From NCBI GenBank assembly GCA_019187485.1, contig JABAQR010000048.1, forward strand, positions 25,979-89,978: a DNA stretch of 64,000 bases, in the 5' to 3' direction. Positions 43,524 to 51,145 of this stretch are shown here, piece by piece. Numbering within the stretch: the first letter of the stretch is position 1; the number at the start of each line of letters is the position of its first letter. A model generated the notes under the pieces. The model saw only the letters and a program-made list of their open reading frames with translations, searched no databases and had not been told where the DNA came from. Made by a program: the position numbers and the translations under genes. Origin of the DNA: Lysobacterales bacterium (lineage in GTDB: Bacteria > Pseudomonadota > Gammaproteobacteria > Xanthomonadales > SZUA-5).

Positions 43524-44963
43524 ATGATCGATACCTGGACCGATCTGCTGCCGATGCTGCCCGAGCTGTTCCTGCTCGGCATGGTCAACTTGATCCTGAT
43601 CGCCGGCCTTTTCATCGACGAGCGTCGTCGCGGGCTCGTGCACTTCATCGCCACGCTGACGCTGGCGTTCGCCGCGATCCTGACGCTGCGCGATTTCGAC
43701 ATCGACGGACGGGTCGCGGTGGCCGGCGGCATGTTCATCCGCGACGGTGCCGGCGACGTCCTGAAGCTCTTCGTCTACCTGACGATGGGCATCGTCTTCG
43801 TCTACGCGAAGTTCTATCTGCGCACGCACAAGCTCTTCGTCGCCGAGTTCTACACGCTGGCACTGTTCTCGGTGCTCGGCATGTGCGTGCTGATTTCCGG
43901 CGGCAATCTGCTGACGATCTACCTCGGTCTGGAACTGATGGCGCTGTCCTCCTACGCGCTGGTCGCGCTGGACCGCGACTCGCCGGTGGCCGCGGAATCG
44001 GCGATGAAGTACTTCGTGCTCGGCGCGCTCGCCTCGGGACTGCTGCTCTACGGCATGTCCATCCTGTACGGCGTGACCGGCAGCCTCGATCTGTCCGAGA
44101 TCGCGACGCGCCTGTCTTCGGGGGAGTATCCGAAAGTGGTGCTGGCCTTTGCGGTGGTGTTCATCGTCGTCGGCATCGGCTTCAAGTTCGGCGCGGTGCC
44201 CTTCCACATGTGGGTGCCGGACGTCTACCAGGGTGCGCCGACCGCGATCACGCTGCTGCTGGCCTCGGCGCCGAAGCTGGCAGCGGTCGGCATGACCTTC
44301 CGGCTGCTGTCCGAGGGCCTCGAACCGCTGGCCCGCGACTGGTCGCAGATGCTCGGCTTTCTTGCACTGATGTCGCTGGTGGTCGGCAATTTCGCGGCGA
44401 TCGCGCAGACCAATCTGAAACGGATGCTCGCGTATTCGACGATTTCGCACGTCGGCTTCGTGCTGCTCGGCATCCTCGCCGGCAGCGACGACGGCATGGC
44501 CGCTGCGATGTTCTACGCGATCACCTACGCGCTGATGACCACCGGCGCCTTCGGCATGATCATCGCGCTGTCGAATGCGGGCTTCGAGTGCGAGCGTATC
44601 GAGGACTTCAAGGGCCTGAACCAGCGCAACCCCTGGTTCGCCTTCCTGATGTTGCTGATCCTGGCGTCGCTGGCCGGCTTCCCGCCGCTGGTCGGGTTCT
44701 TCTCCAAGCTTTACGTGTTGCAGGCCGCGATCAATGCCGGCTGGCTGTGGCTGACCGTGGTCGCGGTGGTGATGGCGGTGATCGGCGCCTACTACTATCT
44801 GCGCGTCATCAAGGTCATGTACTTCGACGAGCCCGAGCACGAACACGCGCTGCAGGCGCCCGGCGATGTGCGCGTGGTACTGGCCGCGAACGGCCTGCTG
44901 CAGCTCCTGCTGACCTTCTTCGTCGGCTCGCTGACCGCGCTCTGCGTTGCCGCCTGGCAGTAG
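43524..44963 (+). CDS. nuoN: NADH-quinone oxidoreductase subunit N
   Basis: 479 aa with FHMWVPDVYQGAPT. Last nuo gene. Confidence 0.95.
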   Translation: MIDTWTDLLPMLPELFLLGMVNLILIAGLFIDERRRGLVHFIATLTLAFAAILTLRDFDIDGRVAVAGGMFIRDGAGDVLKLFVYLTMGIVFVYAKFYLRTHKLFVAEFYTLALFSVLGMCVLISGGNLLTIYLGLELMALSSYALVALDRDSPVAAESAMKYFVLGALASGLLLYGMSILYGVTGSLDLSEIATRLSSGEYPKVVLAFAVVFIVVGIGFKFGAVPFHMWVPDVYQGAPTAITLLLASAPKLAAVGMTFRLLSEGLEPLARDWSQMLGFLALMSLVVGNFAAIAQTNLKRMLAYSTISHVGFVLLGILAGSDDGMAAAMFYAITYALMTTGAFGMIIALSNAGFECERIEDFKGLNQRNPWFAFLMLLILASLAGFPPLVGFFSKLYVLQAAINAGWLWLTVVAVVMAVIGAYYYLRVIKVMYFDEPEHEHALQAPGDVRVVLAANGLLQLLLTFFVGSLTALCVAAWQ

Positions 44964-45228
44964 CCGTTCGCACTCGAGACGGCGCCAGTCGAAGGATCCA
45001 GTCGCTCACAGTTCCCGCCGGCCCATCGCTGCGCCGATGCCGGCCGGCAGGCCAGCACGACGAGGGCCTGCGTGGGAGGGCGCACGCGCGCTTCGTCGGG
45101 AAAGATCCAAGACACTCCTTGTCGTCACCGGATGGCCTGCGCAAATCTGCCGCGAACGCTGTGGCAGCGGACTCGCACGGGCGACGGTGCAGGTGTACAT
45201 TGACCGCGCGCGGATTCTGGAGGTCGCC

Positions 45229-46323
45229 ATGAATGCCAGTTCGCCTGCCTGTGTCCTTGCCCCGCTAGCCGCGCTGTGCGCGATGATGGGCGCCGCGAGC
45301 GCCGGCGCACCTCCGGATGCCATCTTCGCCAATGGTCACGAGAGCTTGCCGATCATCGCGCCGGCGAACACCTGGACCTTCGTGCCCATCGCGGGAACGC
45401 GCTGTGGCAACAACAGTGGCACCGGCATCGGCATCAACCCGAGCAGCAGCGGCGGTGCGCGCGTGCTGCTGTTGCTGAGCGGCGGCGGCGCCTGCTGGGA
45501 CACGCTGACCTGCATTACCCTGCAGACCGCCAGCAACTTCAACGGGGGATATGGGCCTGCGCAGTTCGCCAACGATCTGCCCTCGCTGGGCAGCGGAGCT
45601 CTCGACCGCAGCTCGCCTACCAACCCCTTTCGGGACTTCCACTACGTCTTCGTGCCCTACTGCACCGGCGATCTGCATTTCGGCAGCACGCCATCCATCG
45701 ACTATGGCGGCAATGAGCGCAGTCACCTCGGCTATCACAATCTCAACGCGATCGTGGATCGCGTGATCGCAACCTTCCCGAATCCCGGGCGGGTGGTGCT
45801 CGGCGGAATCAGTGCAGGTGGTTTCGGCGCCGCGTTGAACTGGACGCGGTTTCAGCGGCTATACGGCAGCGTACGCGTGGACATGATCGACGATTCTGGG
45901 CAGTTCATGCCGGCAGCGATCGTGCCGCCGGCTAGTGCCTCCGAGCAGGCTCGATTCGCCAGCTGGAACCTCGCAAGCACGCTGCCGGCCGACTGTTCGG
46001 CATGTTTTGGCGGCGGCCTCGACAACATCTATTCCCATAACGCAAACGCCCTGCCGGGCAACCGCGGCGCCCTGCTGTCCTTCCGACCCGATCCGACGAT
46101 CGCCTCCTTCTTCCAGATCAGCACGTCCAGCTTCACGACCGGACTGAACACGATGCTGACCACGCGTTGGGATCCATTCCCGAACCGACACTACTTCATT
46201 TCCGGCAATTCCGGTCACGTACTCGCCAACAATCTGGCCCTGAGCGTGAACGGCGTCTCGCTGGAAACTTTCCTGACGCGAATGGTGAACGACGATCCGA
46301 ACTGGGCCAACGTCACACCTTGA
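45229..46323 (+). CDS. Secreted esterase-like protein (pectin-acetylesterase/Notum-like family, tentative)
   Basis: Start at MNASSPACVLAPLAALCAMMGAASAG (signal peptide). The motifs LLSGGGACWD and VPYCTGDLHFG resemble the PAE-family GGGWC / YCDG signatures. Confidence 0.55.
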   Translation: MNASSPACVLAPLAALCAMMGAASAGAPPDAIFANGHESLPIIAPANTWTFVPIAGTRCGNNSGTGIGINPSSSGGARVLLLLSGGGACWDTLTCITLQTASNFNGGYGPAQFANDLPSLGSGALDRSSPTNPFRDFHYVFVPYCTGDLHFGSTPSIDYGGNERSHLGYHNLNAIVDRVIATFPNPGRVVLGGISAGGFGAALNWTRFQRLYGSVRVDMIDDSGQFMPAAIVPPASASEQARFASWNLASTLPADCSACFGGGLDNIYSHNANALPGNRGALLSFRPDPTIASFFQISTSSFTTGLNTMLTTRWDPFPNRHYFISGNSGHVLANNLALSVNGVSLETFLTRMVNDDPNWANVTP

Positions 46324-46403
46324 ACGGGTACGCGGATACCTGTGTGGCTTGCGGCCACCGCCCGCCGCGCGAAATCGGCAGGCGCGGCGGCGGCCGCCGG
46401 CAC

Positions 46404-46622
46404 TCACAGCCTGCCGGTCCTGCAAAAGCGGTAGCAGTTCTCCCGTTCGCGACCACAGCCCGCATGGGTGCCGCGTTCGGCGACGCATTCATTGAAGAGA
46501 TCCCAGCACAACCTCTCGCACGGCGAGCCGAAGAGATAGGAGGCGCGCGACACCTGAGGAAAGGCTGAGAGCGCCAGGCCGAGCGTGAGACCGACCACCG
46601 ATATCAGCATTTTTGAACGCAT
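46404..46622 (-). CDS. Small secreted six-cysteine peptide, paralog 3
   Basis: MRSKMLISVVGLTLGLALSAFPQVSRA | SYLFGSPCERLCWDLFNECVAERGTHAGCGRERENCYRFCRTGRL. It has the same Cys spacing and ERG..GCGRER core as the other two. The SD is weak. Confidence 0.7.
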   Translation of the reverse strand: MRSKMLISVVGLTLGLALSAFPQVSRASYLFGSPCERLCWDLFNECVAERGTHAGCGRERENCYRFCRTGRL

Positions 46623-46685
46623 GGAAGAAATCCCGGGAGTTTTGGAGGAGTTGTGGATGTTCGCAAGACGGGCGACGGTGCCCGG

Positions 46686-46898
46686 TTAACCGTTGCCGTA
46701 GGCACTACAGAGATTGAGGCATTCGCGTCGCTCGCGGCCGCAGCCGTTCTTGAGCCCGCGTTCCTGGATGCAGATGTGATACGCGAGCGTGCAAATGCCA
46801 TCGCAAGTGACGGTGTAGGCAGCCGATGGGCGCGGAATGGCAGAGATACCAAGGCCGATCAGCAGACCTGCGATGGTGAGACACAGCTTGGATTTCAT
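46686..46898 (-). CDS. Small secreted six-cysteine peptide, paralog 2
   Basis: MKSKLCLTIAGLLIGLGISAIPRPSAA | YTVTCDGICTLAYHICIQERGLKNGCGRERRECLNLCSAYGNG. An AAGGAAG SD lies upstream. Confidence 0.75.
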   Translation of the reverse strand: MKSKLCLTIAGLLIGLGISAIPRPSAAYTVTCDGICTLAYHICIQERGLKNGCGRERRECLNLCSAYGNG

Positions 46899-47115
46899 GG
46901 AGGACTTCCTTTCTTGTACGCGTGGGGGTGGAACGCTCCCGCCCGGTCGTACGGTTGCCTGATGGGCGGGAGCATGGTCGGGAGGATGAGTAGCGAACTG
47001 CGCGCCCGACCGACGCGCGGCAGTTCGGTGATCGACACCGGGCAGGAGTCCAGCGCCGCAAATCGTTGTATTCAGGTCGACGGCGAATACGCCATCGCGA
47101 GTCTGTAGACGCGCT

Positions 47116-47328
47116 CTATTCGCAGGATTCCAGGCAACTCCGCCGCTCGCGCCCGCAGCCGGCCCTCGCGCCGCGTTCGGCCACGCAAAGGTGATACCTG
47201 AGCTGACAGTCGTCCTGACAGGTCAGGAACAAGCCGGGCGAATCGAAGGCCAGCGAGGTGCGTGGCAGAAGCGAGACTGCGATACCGAGTGCGAGGCCAA
47301 GCGCGGATAGTGCAAGCTTTTGAAACAT
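47116..47328 (-). CDS. Small secreted six-cysteine peptide, paralog 1
   Basis: MFQKLALSALGLALGIAVSLLPRTSLA | FDSPGLFLTCQDDCQLRYHLCVAERGARAGCGRERRSCLESCE. An AAGGAGAG SD lies upstream, inside a relatively AT-richer leader of about 200 nt. Confidence 0.75.
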   Translation of the reverse strand: MFQKLALSALGLALGIAVSLLPRTSLAFDSPGLFLTCQDDCQLRYHLCVAERGARAGCGRERRSCLESCE

Positions 47329-47525
47329 GTCTGCTCTCCTTCAGGGGAAACCATTGGAAACACCACGAATGTCCCGCGAGGCGTGTCGCTCCCACTCCAG
47401 TCGTCGGGGCGGAGGCGAAAAAGGTTTATCGAGTACGCGTCCTCCCGGATGTGCGGGTGAACATCTTCAAATTCGCGGGCGACGGATCGCGCCGCGACCG
47501 CCAGGTGGGAGCCGCCAGCGAGTAT

Positions 47526-47954
47526 TCAGGGCGCAGAACGCGCGAGGCCGTGCGTGCTGGCCACGCCCGTCTGACCCGAGCCACCGAATAGTTCCCGATA
47601 GGCCTCCGGCTGGAAACCCCGGATCAATCGATCCGGCACGATCAGCACCGGCACACCGCGCTCTCCAAGAGCTTTGAAGGCTGCGTCGGCCGTTTCCGAC
47701 TGATCGATCGCCAATTCGCGGTACTGCACGCCGAGAGTCCGCAGACTTTCGCGCGCCTTCTGACAGAAGGGGCAGGTCGTGGTACTGAACAGCACGACGT
47801 CGGTGTCGTACTCGGCCAGCAGCCCACGGTAGTCTCGGACTTCCACCGATCGCGGTTGATTCCACTCCCGGTAGACCTGCTTGCCGCCAATGCCGGCAAG
47901 CCCGCCAACCAGCACGAACATCATCAACCACGCAATTTGCTTGATCGTCCGCAT
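47526..47954 (-). CDS. Membrane-anchored glutaredoxin/NrdH-fold protein (CPFC active site)
   Basis: Start at MRTIKQIAWLMMFVLVGGLAGIGG (one TM helix; GGAG SD upstream). The thioredoxin-fold core follows: VVLFSTTTCPFCQKARESL...GVPVLIV. Confidence 0.8.
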   Translation of the reverse strand: MRTIKQIAWLMMFVLVGGLAGIGGKQVYREWNQPRSVEVRDYRGLLAEYDTDVVLFSTTTCPFCQKARESLRTLGVQYRELAIDQSETADAAFKALGERGVPVLIVPDRLIRGFQPEAYRELFGGSGQTGVASTHGLARSAP

Positions 47955-48170
47955 GTACGCTCCGTCCGGGTGATTGGCAGCTTGGATGCCGGGCGCCGCA
48001 ATCTGGCGCCGAGTCCGGTATCCGTGCTCAACCCGATTACGCGACAAGGCGCACTCTGGATGCAGAGCACCCACGGCAGAGAGAGCGAATCCATCGACGC
48101 CGTCGACGGTCGCAGGATCCGGATACAACCTCGGCGCGACGGAAACAGCGACCCGATGCCAGGAGACTGC

Positions 48171-49637
48171 TCAGGACAGCAGCCGTTGCAGCTTGCGCGC
48201 CTCCTCGCTGTCGGCACTGTTGGCGTGGAGTCGCTGGCAGAGGTCGCGCGCGGCTTCGATGTCGCCGTCCTCGAGGGCGGACAGGGCGAGGCGCAGGGCG
48301 AGCCTTCGGGCCGCCTCGCGGGGTTCGCCGGTGTTGAGCAGGACGTGCACGATCGGTGCAGCAGCGTGGCGTCGACCGCCGCCGAACCAGCGGCTGCCGA
48401 CGGCGAGCAGATCTTCGGTGGACAGGCGGGGCCGGTGACCCGTGGCATTCAGGTACTCTTCGAACAGCGCGATGTCATCGTCGAGTTTCGCCGATGGTTG
48501 CAGACCGCCGACCAGCAGGCGTCGCGCGGCCTCGTGGTAGGCCGTTTCCTGCGGACGATCGCGGCACGCGCGCAGGCGCAGCAGCCAGGCTTCGCGCTCC
48601 GTGGGATGCTGCTCGACGAGGCGTGTGCTGAGCTGGTGGGCGCGCGCGAACTCGAGCCGACCGAGGGCCGCTCGCGTGGGGCCGTAAAGGTCGGGCAGCG
48701 CGGATGTCTCGTGCGACTCGTCGAGCACCTCGCGACGTTCCCAGCCGAGCTTGCGGATCGTCGCGGCGACCAGCGCGCCGGCGACGATGCCGCCGGCGTG
48801 GGCGTCGAAGGCCACTTTCGCCTCCGGCAACGAGACCATCTGGTACAGCTCCCAGCCCAGCCAGACCGGCAGCAGCAGCAGCGCCGGGACGCGCACGGAG
48901 TCGAAGATCACGAAAAACCAGTAGAAAACGCGGATGCGGCGCATGCCCCAGACCACGCAGCAGGCGCCCATCAACGCGGCGATCGCGCCGGAGGCACCAA
49001 GCAGACTGCCGAAATCGCCCAGGTGGCGCACCACGCTGACCGTGCCGGCACAGAGGCCACCGAGCAGGTACACCCCGAGGAAGAGCCAGGGGCCGAGCGC
49101 GGCCTCGGTCATCAACCCGAGCAGCGCCAGCATGACCATGTTGCCGATCAAGTGCCCACCGCTGCCATGCAGGAACATCGACGAGAAGTAACGTGGGGCA
49201 CTGGGCTCATGGAACAACAGCACATGCCGGGGCGTGAAGGCGCGCAGCAACCTGCGCTCGAATTCCGCGCGCTGCACGCGCACCGACGTGGCGCGCGGGT
49301 TGTCGCGGTCGTGCAGCGGCGTCCGCGAGATGCGCGTCGCGAAGGTTGGATCGATCGCCTGTACCTGCACCGCCAGTTGCGCCTGTGCCGGCGGCGGCAG
49401 TGATTGCAGTGTCGTGGCCAGGTCCGGACGCTCGCGCGAAAGCAGATGTTCCCGCAACGCGTCCAGTTCGAGTTCGAGCAGTCCACTGCGCCGATAGAAA
49501 TCGGCGGCCTCGGCGAGTGCGCGCTCGTCGCGTGCCTGCGGACCGATGTAGACCAGCACGTTGACGGCGATCAGCAGCGCCGTCACCCACGGAAAATTCG
49601 CCAGCGTCGGCTTGCGATGGAGCGGGATGATCAGCAT
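48171..49637 (-). CDS. Rhomboid-family intramembrane serine protease with a C-terminal helical-repeat domain
   Basis: Motifs FLHGSGGHLIGNM (HxxxN), GASGAIAALMG (GxSG, catalytic Ser) and AHAGGIVAG (catalytic His). 488 aa. A GGGAGG SD sits in the 21-nt gap after prpC. Confidence 0.85.
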   Translation of the reverse strand: MLIIPLHRKPTLANFPWVTALLIAVNVLVYIGPQARDERALAEAADFYRRSGLLELELDALREHLLSRERPDLATTLQSLPPPAQAQLAVQVQAIDPTFATRISRTPLHDRDNPRATSVRVQRAEFERRLLRAFTPRHVLLFHEPSAPRYFSSMFLHGSGGHLIGNMVMLALLGLMTEAALGPWLFLGVYLLGGLCAGTVSVVRHLGDFGSLLGASGAIAALMGACCVVWGMRRIRVFYWFFVIFDSVRVPALLLLPVWLGWELYQMVSLPEAKVAFDAHAGGIVAGALVAATIRKLGWERREVLDESHETSALPDLYGPTRAALGRLEFARAHQLSTRLVEQHPTEREAWLLRLRACRDRPQETAYHEAARRLLVGGLQPSAKLDDDIALFEEYLNATGHRPRLSTEDLLAVGSRWFGGGRRHAAAPIVHVLLNTGEPREAARRLALRLALSALEDGDIEAARDLCQRLHANSADSEEARKLQRLLS

Positions 49638-49658
49638 CGCCGCCTCCCGCCACCCGAT

Positions 49659-50813
49659 TCAGACGCGCTGTTCCAGCGGATCCCAGGGACGTTCGTCGGG
49701 GCCGGTGTAGTGGGCGCTCGGGCGGATGATCTTGCCGTCCTGGCGCTGCTCGATGACGTGCGCGCACCAGCCGGTGGTGCGTGAGACCACGAACAGCGGC
49801 GTGAACATCGGCGTCGGCACGCCCATCATGTGGTAGCTCGATGCGCTGTACCAGTCGAGGTTCGGGAACATCTTCTTGAGGTCCCACATCAGCGACTCGA
49901 TGCGCTCCGAGACCGCGAACAGGCGCCGATTGCCGCCATCCTCGCACAGGCGCCGGCTGATCTCCTTGATGATCACGTTGCGCGGATCGGAGATCGTGTA
50001 GACCGGGTGGCCGAAGCCGATGATGATCTCCTTGCGCTCGACGCGCGCACGGATGTCGGCCTCGGCTTCGTCGGCGCTGCGATAGCGCGCGATGATGTCC
50101 ATCGCCACTTCATTGGCGCCGCCGTGCTTGGGCCCGCGCAGCGCGCCGATGGCTGCGGTGACTGCCGAGTAGATGTCCGCGCCGGTGCCTGCCACCACGC
50201 GCGCGGCGAAGGTGCTGGCGTTGAACTCGTGCTCGGCGTAGAGGATCAACGACTGGTCGAGCGACCGCACGTGCAACTCGTGCGGTCGCCGGCCATGCAA
50301 CAGGTGCAGGAAGTGCGCGGCGACGCCCTCGTCGTCGGTCTCGACGTCGATGCGCGCGCCCGAATGGCTGAAGTGGTGCCAGTACAGCAGCATCGAGCCA
50401 AAGCTCGCGATCAGGCGGTCGGCGATGTCGCGCGCCTCGGCCAGCGGATGACTTTCCTTCTCCGGCAACACGGCGCCGAGCACCGAGCAACCGGTGCGCA
50501 TGACGTCCATCGGATGGGTGGACGGCGGCAGCATCTCGAGCGCGTCCTGGACGATCGCCGGCAGTCCGCGCAGACGCTTCAGCTTGCTCTTGTAGGCCTT
50601 GAGCTCGGCGATGTTCGGCAATTGGCCGTGCACCAGCAGGTGCGCGACTTCCTCGAAGCAGGCGTGCTTCGCGAGGTCATGGATGTCGTAGCCGCGGTAG
50701 GAAAGATCGTTGCCGGTGCGGCCAACCGTGCACAGCGCGGTGTTGCCGGCGGCGACACCGGACAGCGCGACCGACTTCTTGGCCTTGGGCAGGATCTGTG
50801 CGGCATCGGACAT
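49659..50813 (-). CDS. prpC: 2-methylcitrate synthase / citrate synthase family
   Basis: [50 protein letters not shown] closely parallels E. coli PrpC as recalled. A GGAG SD lies upstream of this ATG. Confidence 0.88.
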
Positions 50814-51145
50814 CGGGAACTCCATGAAATCGACGCGACCATCGCGCGGGCAATCCGTGATTCTAGCCCGAATCTTTCACAACAACCGGGGAATCTCGCC
50901 TATCTCGTTGATATGGCTATGGATACAGCCACAACACTCCGTACGAGCCATGCACAAGACTGCTCCTGGACGGGCCCACCCCGAGCCAGCGACGCTTTCC
51001 TGTCCGCGCTGCATTCGGAGGGCGCCGACCGGCAAAAGCACGCCATGCGCGATTCCGCCTCAGCCTGTGCGTCCGGTCACTCCAGAACCCCGGACGAAGC
51101 GACCCTGTTGCATCCTTCACGGGTCAAAGCGCCCCGGTGCGGAAC

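Follow-up and report, generated by a model that had tools for sequence, protein, structure and literature searches.

Glycocin gene clusters encode dedicated thioredoxin-like oxidoreductases (BdbAB, GccCD and ThgCD), and in the glycocins themselves a loop connects two helices, each of which has a C-x6-C motif, and the disulfides are nested (PMC12457901). The examples considered here are sublancin SunA with BdbA/BdbB, glycocin F with GccC/GccD and thermoglycocin with ThgC/ThgD. Here we describe a locus in a 64,000-nt stretch of DNA from a Lysobacterales bacterium (the window; all positions without a locus name follow its numbering), read on the minus strand at 46404-50825, where the gene of a membrane-anchored glutaredoxin (Grx) is followed by three genes for small peptides with six cysteines (Cys) each. 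With some reservation, we favor a functional unit of two parts: a Grx with a transmembrane (TM) helix and a CP(F/Y)C motif, and one to four adjacent genes for Sec-exported peptides. From its sequence and those of its neighbors, the TM-Grx probably makes the disulfide bonds of these peptides.

By analogy, the glycocin cluster is the closest counterpart of this module. In both, the gene of a dedicated thiol-disulfide oxidoreductase lies by genes for small two-helix peptides, and the 4-Cys clade of the module peptides shares the (C-x6-C)x2 logic of the glycocins. In contrast to the glycocin clusters, no SunS/GccA-type glycosyltransferase or C39-peptidase ABC exporter was found near the module in the Pfam calls of loci L001, L002 and L109; the peptides are exported with a Sec signal peptide in place of a leader peptide; the Xanthomonadales and Oxalobacteraceae that carry the module are Gram-negative; and the enzyme has a Grx/NrdH fold with a single TM anchor instead of being a BdbA/BdbB pair. 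Sequence similarity between the module peptides and glycocins was not detected.

Other described systems share part of this arrangement. The mitochondrial Mia40/Erv1 pathway also combines an anchored oxidoreductase with helix-loop-helix substrates of mirror-symmetric Cys (twin-CX3C small Tim and twin-CX9C CHCH proteins), in which nested inter-helix disulfides are formed outside the inner membrane and several paralogous substrate types coexist. Mia40 has, however, a CHCH fold with a CPC motif where the module enzyme has a Grx fold, homology between the two systems was not detected, and the bacterial peptides are Sec-exported; the relation is one of functional analogy only. CcmG/DsbE, TlpA, ResA and TrbB of the F plasmid resemble the module enzyme in a single anchor or signal at the N-terminus, a CxxC domain that is exported (as predicted for the module enzyme) and narrow, dedicated substrates. 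They differ from it in their full thioredoxin fold and other active-site motifs, and their main activity, on cytochrome c, CuA or pilus proteins, is that of a reductant or isomerase; the structures closest to the module enzyme are those of Grx and NrdH, not TlpA or DsbE. Plant alpha-hairpinins and scorpion Cs-alpha/alpha toxins are disulfide-stapled helical hairpins with a C-x3-C ... C-x3-C pattern, comparable to the twin C-x3-C peptide of locus L057, but they are eukaryotic, have two disulfides and no dedicated oxidoreductase gene alongside, and show no detectable sequence similarity to the module peptides. As for the bufferins and other Sec-exported, cysteine-containing ribosomal peptides modified by MNIO (DUF692) enzymes, which are encoded next to the enzyme and a partner protein, no DUF692 neighbor was present in any locus with called genes. 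The type of pairing, a dedicated oxidoreductase beside its cysteine-peptide substrates, is thus already known; what is new here is an uncharacterised enzyme scaffold together with its peptide families, which are fairly widespread.

Co-occurrence of the anchored glutaredoxin with cysteine peptides

When conservation of the gene neighborhood was checked, the Grx was found to be conserved with the peptides, whereas the rhomboid protease gene that precedes it in the window was conserved with neither. Peptide homologues, distant ones included, adjoin a homologous TM-Grx in at least six genomic contexts, which strongly supports the functional link between the two that a preliminary description of this DNA had proposed. 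To count as a module, a locus had to encode an N-terminal TM helix followed by a Grx domain of the form T-x-T-C-P-(F/Y)-C-x-x-A-R, together with at least one same-strand gene within about 1 kb for a peptide with a signal peptide and an even number of mirror-spaced Cys; the window shows every one of these features. Among the non-redundant members of the Grx family (at most 90% identical, n=23), 20 loci carry a gene for a secreted Cys mini-protein. Nineteen of them were recovered by an automatic filter (signal peptide and at least four Cys, not more than 900 nt from the Grx gene, same strand) and one, L039, by inspection. The same filter returned nothing in 508 kb of control loci and nothing in the rest of the window. 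The three loci without a peptide gene are L029, where the Grx gene lies 154 nt from the start of the contig, L014, where the contig ends 134 nt beyond it, and L055. In two relatives of L055, decayed peptide open reading frames (ORFs) lacking a start codon and signal peptide stand beside an intact TM-Grx gene (L052, 3356-3609; L047, 2749-2871). In a lower-scoring group of TM-Grx proteins (82 bits or less) no such peptide genes were seen alongside.

The order of genes varies within the module. A TM-Grx of 141-146 aa is encoded directly upstream of the peptides in the window and L001, and also in L002, L003 and L006, with differing flanking genes. L001 comes from GCA_021404805.1 ("Xanthomonadales bacterium PRO6"), a genome of the same species as the window, whose annotation omits the first peptide gene of the three. 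In L002 the gene of a 146-aa TM-Grx is followed by three peptide genes, a DUF4331 gene lies divergently upstream, and neither prpC nor a rhomboid gene occurs within 10 kb. The short contigs L003 and L006 each carry a Grx gene followed by two peptide genes; in L006 (823-1526) the second one is cut off past its third Cys, with an IS21-type IstB-like ORF on the opposite strand directly downstream. A search with the single Grx sequence yielded 8 clusters only and four new loci, three of which have divergent peptides of identical Cys spacing, the fourth being L014. These three show the orders peptide, Grx, SRPBCC gene (L007), peptide, Grx, peptide, peptide (L010) and peptide, Grx (L011). The peptides encoded upstream of the Grx form a divergent subtype that ends in CGLNG and has exactly the same Cys spacing. 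A TM-Grx gene also precedes each of the distant peptide relatives P0020 (E = 5e-11) and P0021 (1.5e-9).

The metagenome scan with the Grx alignment brought up relatives of 28-39% identity, and each clade of them has a peptide type of its own: 6-Cys hairpins with a 10-residue loop in L030-L032; two tandem 4-Cys hairpins, C-x6-C-x6-C-x6-C, in L038-L056; an 8-Cys hairpin, C-x3-C-x6-C-x3-C-x5-C-x3-C-x6-C-x3-C, in L033; the twin C-x3-C peptide in L057; and C-x12-C-x9-CC in L035-L039. With a family profile the wider Grx family comprises at least 575 protein clusters at E<=1e-15, and it is found in cultured Massilia, Duganella, Rugamonas and Dokdonella, where its members are named only "glutaredoxin family protein". 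The cultured Massilia brevitalea has an exonuclease gene, the TM-Grx gene, two genes for 51-aa peptides and two cytochrome c genes in a row. These c-type cytochromes, of 251 and 425 aa, are encoded on the same strand past the module only in Oxalobacteraceae, Massilia included (L109, 5005-7034, and likewise L110-L114; L053, 6745-8918), which may reflect no more than synteny or may point to a redox link. No DsbB, DsbD, VKOR, ABC exporter or protease gene was conserved as a third gene next to the module. A 160-aa SRPBCC (Polyketide_cyc2) protein is encoded behind it in L002 (10754-11236), L007 (1376-1858) and L010 (2075-2557) only, and not beside it in the window. The TM-Grx/peptide module is conserved and apparently undescribed, since full-text searches of the literature returned no description of this pairing.

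Sequence, fold and class of the two components

The three peptide genes of the window lie on the minus strand at 47328..47116, 46898..46686 and 46622..46404 and encode precursors of 70, 70 and 72 aa, respectively. Each precursor has a Sec-type signal peptide with n, h and c regions and A-x-A at its end, followed by six Cys in the mirror-symmetric spacing C-x3-C-x6-C-x9-C-x6-C-x3-C. In peptide 1, which is identical to P0001, signal peptidase I is predicted to cut after SLA27, which would give a 43-aa mature peptide with all six Cys; the predicted first residues of mature peptides 1, 2 and 3 are F28, Y28 and S28, respectively. The three peptides are paralogues, with 44-49% identity to peptide 1; a conserved loop, ERG-x3-GCGRE, links their two halves, and 1-7 residues follow the last Cys. 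Peptide 2 ends in C-(N/S)-A-(Y/F)-G-x-G and has orthologues in L004, L006 and L010; peptide 3 ends in RFC-x-x-G-x-L and has the orthologues P0005, P0006 and P0007.

An alignment of 15 homologues shows no substitution at any of the six Cys or at one Gly of the loop in the mature part, nor at one Ala at the predicted cleavage site. The ratio of nonsynonymous to synonymous substitution rates (dN/dS) is 0.20-0.24 for peptide 2 against its L006 and L004 orthologues, the core of peptide 3 gave a dN of 0.45 and a dS of 1.07 against L004, and over all orthologue comparisons the ratio is about 0.2-0.4. The exact six-Cys pattern does not occur elsewhere in the six-frame translation of the window. These genes are therefore not chance ORFs, as their Cys pattern is unique in the window, their Cys are invariant and they are under purifying selection. 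Together with the retention of distinct paralogue types across genera, this selection points to a conserved partner or target and not to an arms-race toxin.

The AlphaFold2 model of peptide 1 has two helices, residues 37-52 and 58-67, with a predicted local distance difference test score (pLDDT) of about 90 over the Cys region. Cys 37, 41 and 48 are aligned on a single helical face, with Cys 58, 65 and 69 on a second one, a geometry that would be expected for three nested inter-helix disulfides. With this model Foldseek found no match in the PDB below E=4; the weak matches are generic helical hairpins such as neurotoxin B-IV and Coa6. Searches of Pfam, NCBIfam and PADLOC gave no match for any of the peptides. 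A peptide profile run against 5.8 billion proteins retrieved 8 proteins, which come only from Xanthomonadales/Lysobacterales metagenome bins or unassigned contigs. An exhaustive search with a hidden Markov model in 1.84 billion representative proteins gave 26 relatives at E<=1e-3, including more distant bacterial secreted peptides and some eukaryotic proteins, apparently of fungal wall type, with repeats of the Cys unit. Among the latter, P0023, P0024, P0025 and P0035 are Ser/Thr-rich, begin with a signal sequence, are hydrophobic at the C-terminus, and resemble fungal wall proteins of the glycosylphosphatidylinositol type; they carry 2-3 tandem C-x3-C-x6-C-x10-C-x6-C-x3-C units, for which there is no Pfam family. 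Another relative, P0028, keeps the ERG...GCG.ER loop, and about one-quarter of its mature part is His, with HHHH at the end.

The enzyme is encoded at 47954..47526 on the minus strand. The 142-aa start is supported by the homologues, all of which begin with M-x-x-x-K, and the gene has a dN/dS of 0.08 in the orthologue comparison. There is one N-terminal hydrophobic helix in the sequence, at roughly residues 4-24; in the AlphaFold2 model the TM helix spans residues 2-31 and is followed by a short strand and helix (37-48) and by a canonical Grx core (54-124) with pLDDT above 90. The assignment to the Grx fold was supported by a Pfam PF00462 match well above the gathering score (53.4 bits, cut-off 22.9; E=3e-14), the CPFC motif at 61-64 and the cis-Pro motif V101-P102. 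In the PDB, Foldseek matched the model best with structures of Grx and NrdH (target-normalised TM-score, 0.74-0.87). Residues T58, T60, C61, P62, C64, A67, R68, V101, P102 and G113 are invariant in the family alignment.

The protein falls outside each of the described Grx families that were compared. It scores 34.7 bits against the 90 required for Grx3 (TIGR02181) and 25.8 against 87 for TIGR02180, and is thus not assigned to the classical glutathione (GSH)-dependent glutaredoxins; the GSH-binding region G-G-x-D-D is replaced by an NrdH-like (I/V)-R-G-F-Q-P, in the family form (I/V)-x-G-(F/Y). A G-F-x-P motif is shared with the NrdH and YruB families without membership in either, as the scores are 31.3 bits for NrdH-redoxin (TIGR02194, cut-off 85.75) and 59.3 bits for the YruB-family Grx-like proteins (TIGR02196, cut-off 88.55). 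Weak NCBIfam matches to TrbB (E=0.0017) and DsbE (E=0.07) are far below the cut-offs of those families. Because R-G-F-Q-P stands in the place of G-G-x-D-D and all equivalog scores are below their cut-offs, the TM-Grx is, judged by motif and score, a distinct Grx-fold subfamily.

Proposed mechanism and its alternatives

In the mechanism that we propose, the peptide precursors would be exported via Sec and cut by signal peptidase I at the conserved A-x-A site, and the products of 43-45 residues would fold into a helix-loop-helix hairpin with three Cys on one face of helix 1 (i, i+4, i+11) and three facing Cys on helix 2 (i, i+7, i+11). The Grx domain, tethered to the inner membrane on its periplasmic side, would then form or isomerise the nested bonds C1-C6, C2-C5 and C3-C4 between the two helices. 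Of these three predicted disulfides, two join non-consecutive Cys, which the general oxidase DsbA tends to mispair and for which an isomerase or a dedicated catalyst is classically needed. A tethered, periplasm-facing oxidoreductase dedicated to the hairpins is suggested because its partners are Sec-exported and because the enzyme clade and the peptide type co-vary.

Several points weigh against this mechanism. Firstly, the two genes are not always found together. In L055 the Grx gene stands alone and the peptides have been lost, which, with the peptide relics of L052 and L047, indicates that the module can erode. For the peptide pair of L004 and L005 there is no Grx gene in the 780 nt upstream; an unrelated ORF ends 478 nt before the pair, and there is no Grx gene between (L004, 1-1399), and the sample from which L005 came (SRR8741053) also yielded a locus with peptide and Grx genes, L013, so that the peptide genes can sit apart from the enzyme gene. 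Secondly, a redox partner (DsbB, VKOR, DsbD or CcdA) is not encoded in the module, and the raw numbers of K+R that flank the TM helix at either end hardly differ (2.08 and 2.31). Thirdly, the His content of P0028 hints that some family members bind metal. In addition, the predicted disulfide connectivity is taken from the Cys spacing alone, and the mechanism as a whole draws its support from genes and models. Finally, the enzyme, an oxidase or isomerase in this reading, could instead hold the Cys reduced.

A reducing role is possible because CP(F/Y)C glutaredoxins are mostly reductants, as are CcmG, TlpA and ResA; the Grx/NrdH scaffold with this motif is typically reducing. The enzyme might then act in the periplasm as a reductant, with reducing power from DsbD or CcdA, and the peptides would be metal- or redox-active mini-proteins, such as Cu/Zn buffers or chaperones, that are not stapled at all. 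The His-packed P0028, a close family member, and the two cytochrome c genes behind the Massilia module, on the same strand, would both fit such a role. However, mirror-symmetric Cys on facing helices are the classic geometry of inter-helix disulfides, as known from small Tims, CHCH proteins, alpha-hairpinins and glycocins, and the variants with four, six and eight Cys are always even-numbered and arranged to pair. The peptides of the window have no conserved His or Met ligands, and genes for DsbD, CcdA or metal handling are not among the conserved neighbors of the module. We consider a reductant with metal-binding peptides unlikely on these grounds.

The other question is on which side of the membrane the Grx domain resides. 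Glutaredoxins are normally cytoplasmic, and with an N-out/C-in orientation the domain might keep the pre-peptides reduced and export-competent before export, or the link between the genes might be merely regulatory. The preliminary description had left the topology ambiguous; with K and R on both flanks of the TM helix and raw counts that are not decisive, this part of it stands, but the net charge of the flanks does favor one orientation. Over 86 family members the net charge is +1.94 in the N-tail and +0.55 in the 15-residue C-flank. The N-tails are short (5-8 residues) and carry about two K/R each, K5 being invariant in the ten sequences of the window's own Grx clade, which makes them poor candidates for translocation. 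Furthermore, the region that would bind GSH reads as the NrdH-like (I/V)-x-G-(F/Y), and the cytoplasm is already reducing, so that a dedicated reductant for Sec substrates would meet no obvious need. One Grx clade has a lipobox-like A-A-A-C, and L028 an L-L-A-C, where the hydrophobic segment ends, and both are suggestive of export; they were rejected as proof of it, as the Cys lies inside the hydrophobic stretch. A cytoplasmic Grx domain is therefore quite improbable in our judgement. An N-in/C-out topology with a periplasmic domain is favored, a reading that draws on the net charge and on the exported partners because the raw counts are similar.

The rhomboid gene, its surroundings and the meaning of the module

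Six genes are found on the minus strand between 50825 and 46404, in the order prpC, rhomboid, Grx and peptides 1, 2 and 3. The five ORFs, coordinates and motifs of the preliminary description were all recovered as given, as were its intergenic gaps of 216 nt and 197 nt and the close coupling of the rhomboid gene to prpC, the rhomboid start being 21 nt past the prpC stop. prpC (50825..49659, 388 aa) matches the NCBIfam 2-methylcitrate synthase family with 672 bits. The next gene (49637..48171, 488 aa) encodes a rhomboid-family intramembrane serine protease (Pfam PF01694, MEROPS S54), with the domain at residues 149-295 (78.6 bits, cut-off 22.6; E=7e-22) and the catalytic motifs HLIGN 162, GASG 214 and AHAGG 279 intact. 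The protein has an N-terminal extension and a putative TPR-like domain at the C-terminus. An extra helical-repeat domain had been described besides the GASG and AHAGG motifs; in the C-terminal part of about 190 aa only sub-threshold TPR matches were obtained.

A scan of 185,579 species genomes gave eleven relatives of this rhomboid. The five closest orthologues (L015-L019) are full length, with 58-60% identity, and all follow a prpC of 87-91% identity; in the three loci with 6 kb of downstream sequence, no Grx or peptide genes were found downstream of the rhomboid gene. Conversely, L002 (with 10-kb flanks), L031, L053 and L109 have the module without a rhomboid, and no rhomboid gene lies beside the module at any module locus examined outside the window's species. 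The rhomboid is a neighbor that belongs with prpC and is not a conserved part of the module, contrary to what the preliminary description had proposed. Nor does the idea that it frees the peptides agree with their sequences, since every peptide keeps a signal peptide with n, h and c regions and A-x-A at -3/-1. Rhombosortase and its GlyGly-CTERM substrates do show that a protease of the rhomboid family can be linked genetically to the proteins that it cuts. In the window, however, the rhomboid scores below the cut-off of rhombosortase, its best NCBIfam match (TIGR03902, 40.4 bits versus 84), the peptide C-termini lack the sorting signal (Gly-Gly, TM helix and basic cluster), and the adjacency is not conserved. 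A three-part module, in which the rhomboid would cut the hydrophobic segments of the peptides, the TM-Grx would oxidise them and the five genes would act together, is thus very improbable in spite of the intact catalytic motifs, the location of all five genes on one strand in both the window and L001 and the lack of a detected terminator between them, given the fidelity of the orthologues to prpC, the module loci without a rhomboid, the signal peptidase I motifs, the missing sorting signal and the base composition described below.

Some further ORFs were noted around the rhomboid orthologues. A TM-anchored thioredoxin/Grx-fold protein of 117 aa with a WCGYC motif is encoded 3 kb upstream of prpC in L019 (616-969) and L018 (866-1087); it differs from the module Grx, and there are no hairpin peptides near it. 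An ORF of about 300 aa with weak matches to outer-membrane beta-barrels lies between prpC and the rhomboid gene in four of the five closest loci (for example L015, 5013-5969, and L019, 5112-5999) and is missing in the window and L016. A helical ORF that precedes the module in L011 was considered as a cut-off C-terminal domain of a rhomboid and rejected, as it has no similarity to that domain and no Pfam match.

The GC content at third codon positions (GC3) is 0.69-0.75 in the Grx and peptide genes, compared with 0.84 in the rhomboid gene and 0.90 in prpC, and the overall GC content dips to 0.62 in 46001-48000, compared with 0.65-0.72 around. This difference in GC3 suggests separate origins, and both it and the GC dip are consistent with insertion of the module beside the prpC-rhomboid pair or with horizontal acquisition of the module. 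The 216-nt spacer between the rhomboid and Grx genes (47955..48170) may hold a promoter of the module's own. A promoter scan of 46200-49800, the spacer included, found no sigma-70-like site, and a terminator scan of the same region found two terminator-like sites, both inside coding sequence and at chance level, and none between genes. No match was obtained in an Rfam scan of 45000-51000, and no conserved motif when the regions upstream of the module were aligned from eight loci. In L002 and L028 the gene upstream of the module runs the other way, and there the module must be transcribed by itself. On the other side of the locus, a pectinacetylesterase-like secreted protein (Pfam PAE, E=4e-16) is encoded on the plus strand at 45229-46323, converging on the last peptide gene; it comes after the nuo operon, of which nuoN occupies 43524-44963.

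As a tentative extension, which we regard as speculative, the module may represent a widespread, undescribed extracytoplasmic oxidative-folding pair of Gram-negative bacteria, analogous to Mia40 and its small Tim and CHCH substrates, where the hairpins, with two or three paralogue types per genome, would serve as a new class of periplasmic hetero-oligomeric factors or as unmodified hairpin bacteriocins or signals. If the favored two-part reading holds, the Gram-negative envelope would gain a substrate-dedicated disulfide catalyst built on the Grx/NrdH scaffold, which to our knowledge has so far been regarded as cytoplasmic. That reading would also explain hundreds of genes labelled "glutaredoxin family protein" or "GST N-terminal domain protein" and the often uncalled mini-ORFs adjacent to them. 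The neighboring rhomboid should not be annotated as a component of peptide maturation. Cultured Massilia, Duganella, Rugamonas and Dokdonella carry the module, which makes direct testing possible. The peptides themselves would constitute a new family of very stable mini-proteins of 30-45 residues with 2-4 predicted disulfides, which are potential antimicrobial, signaling or scaffold molecules.

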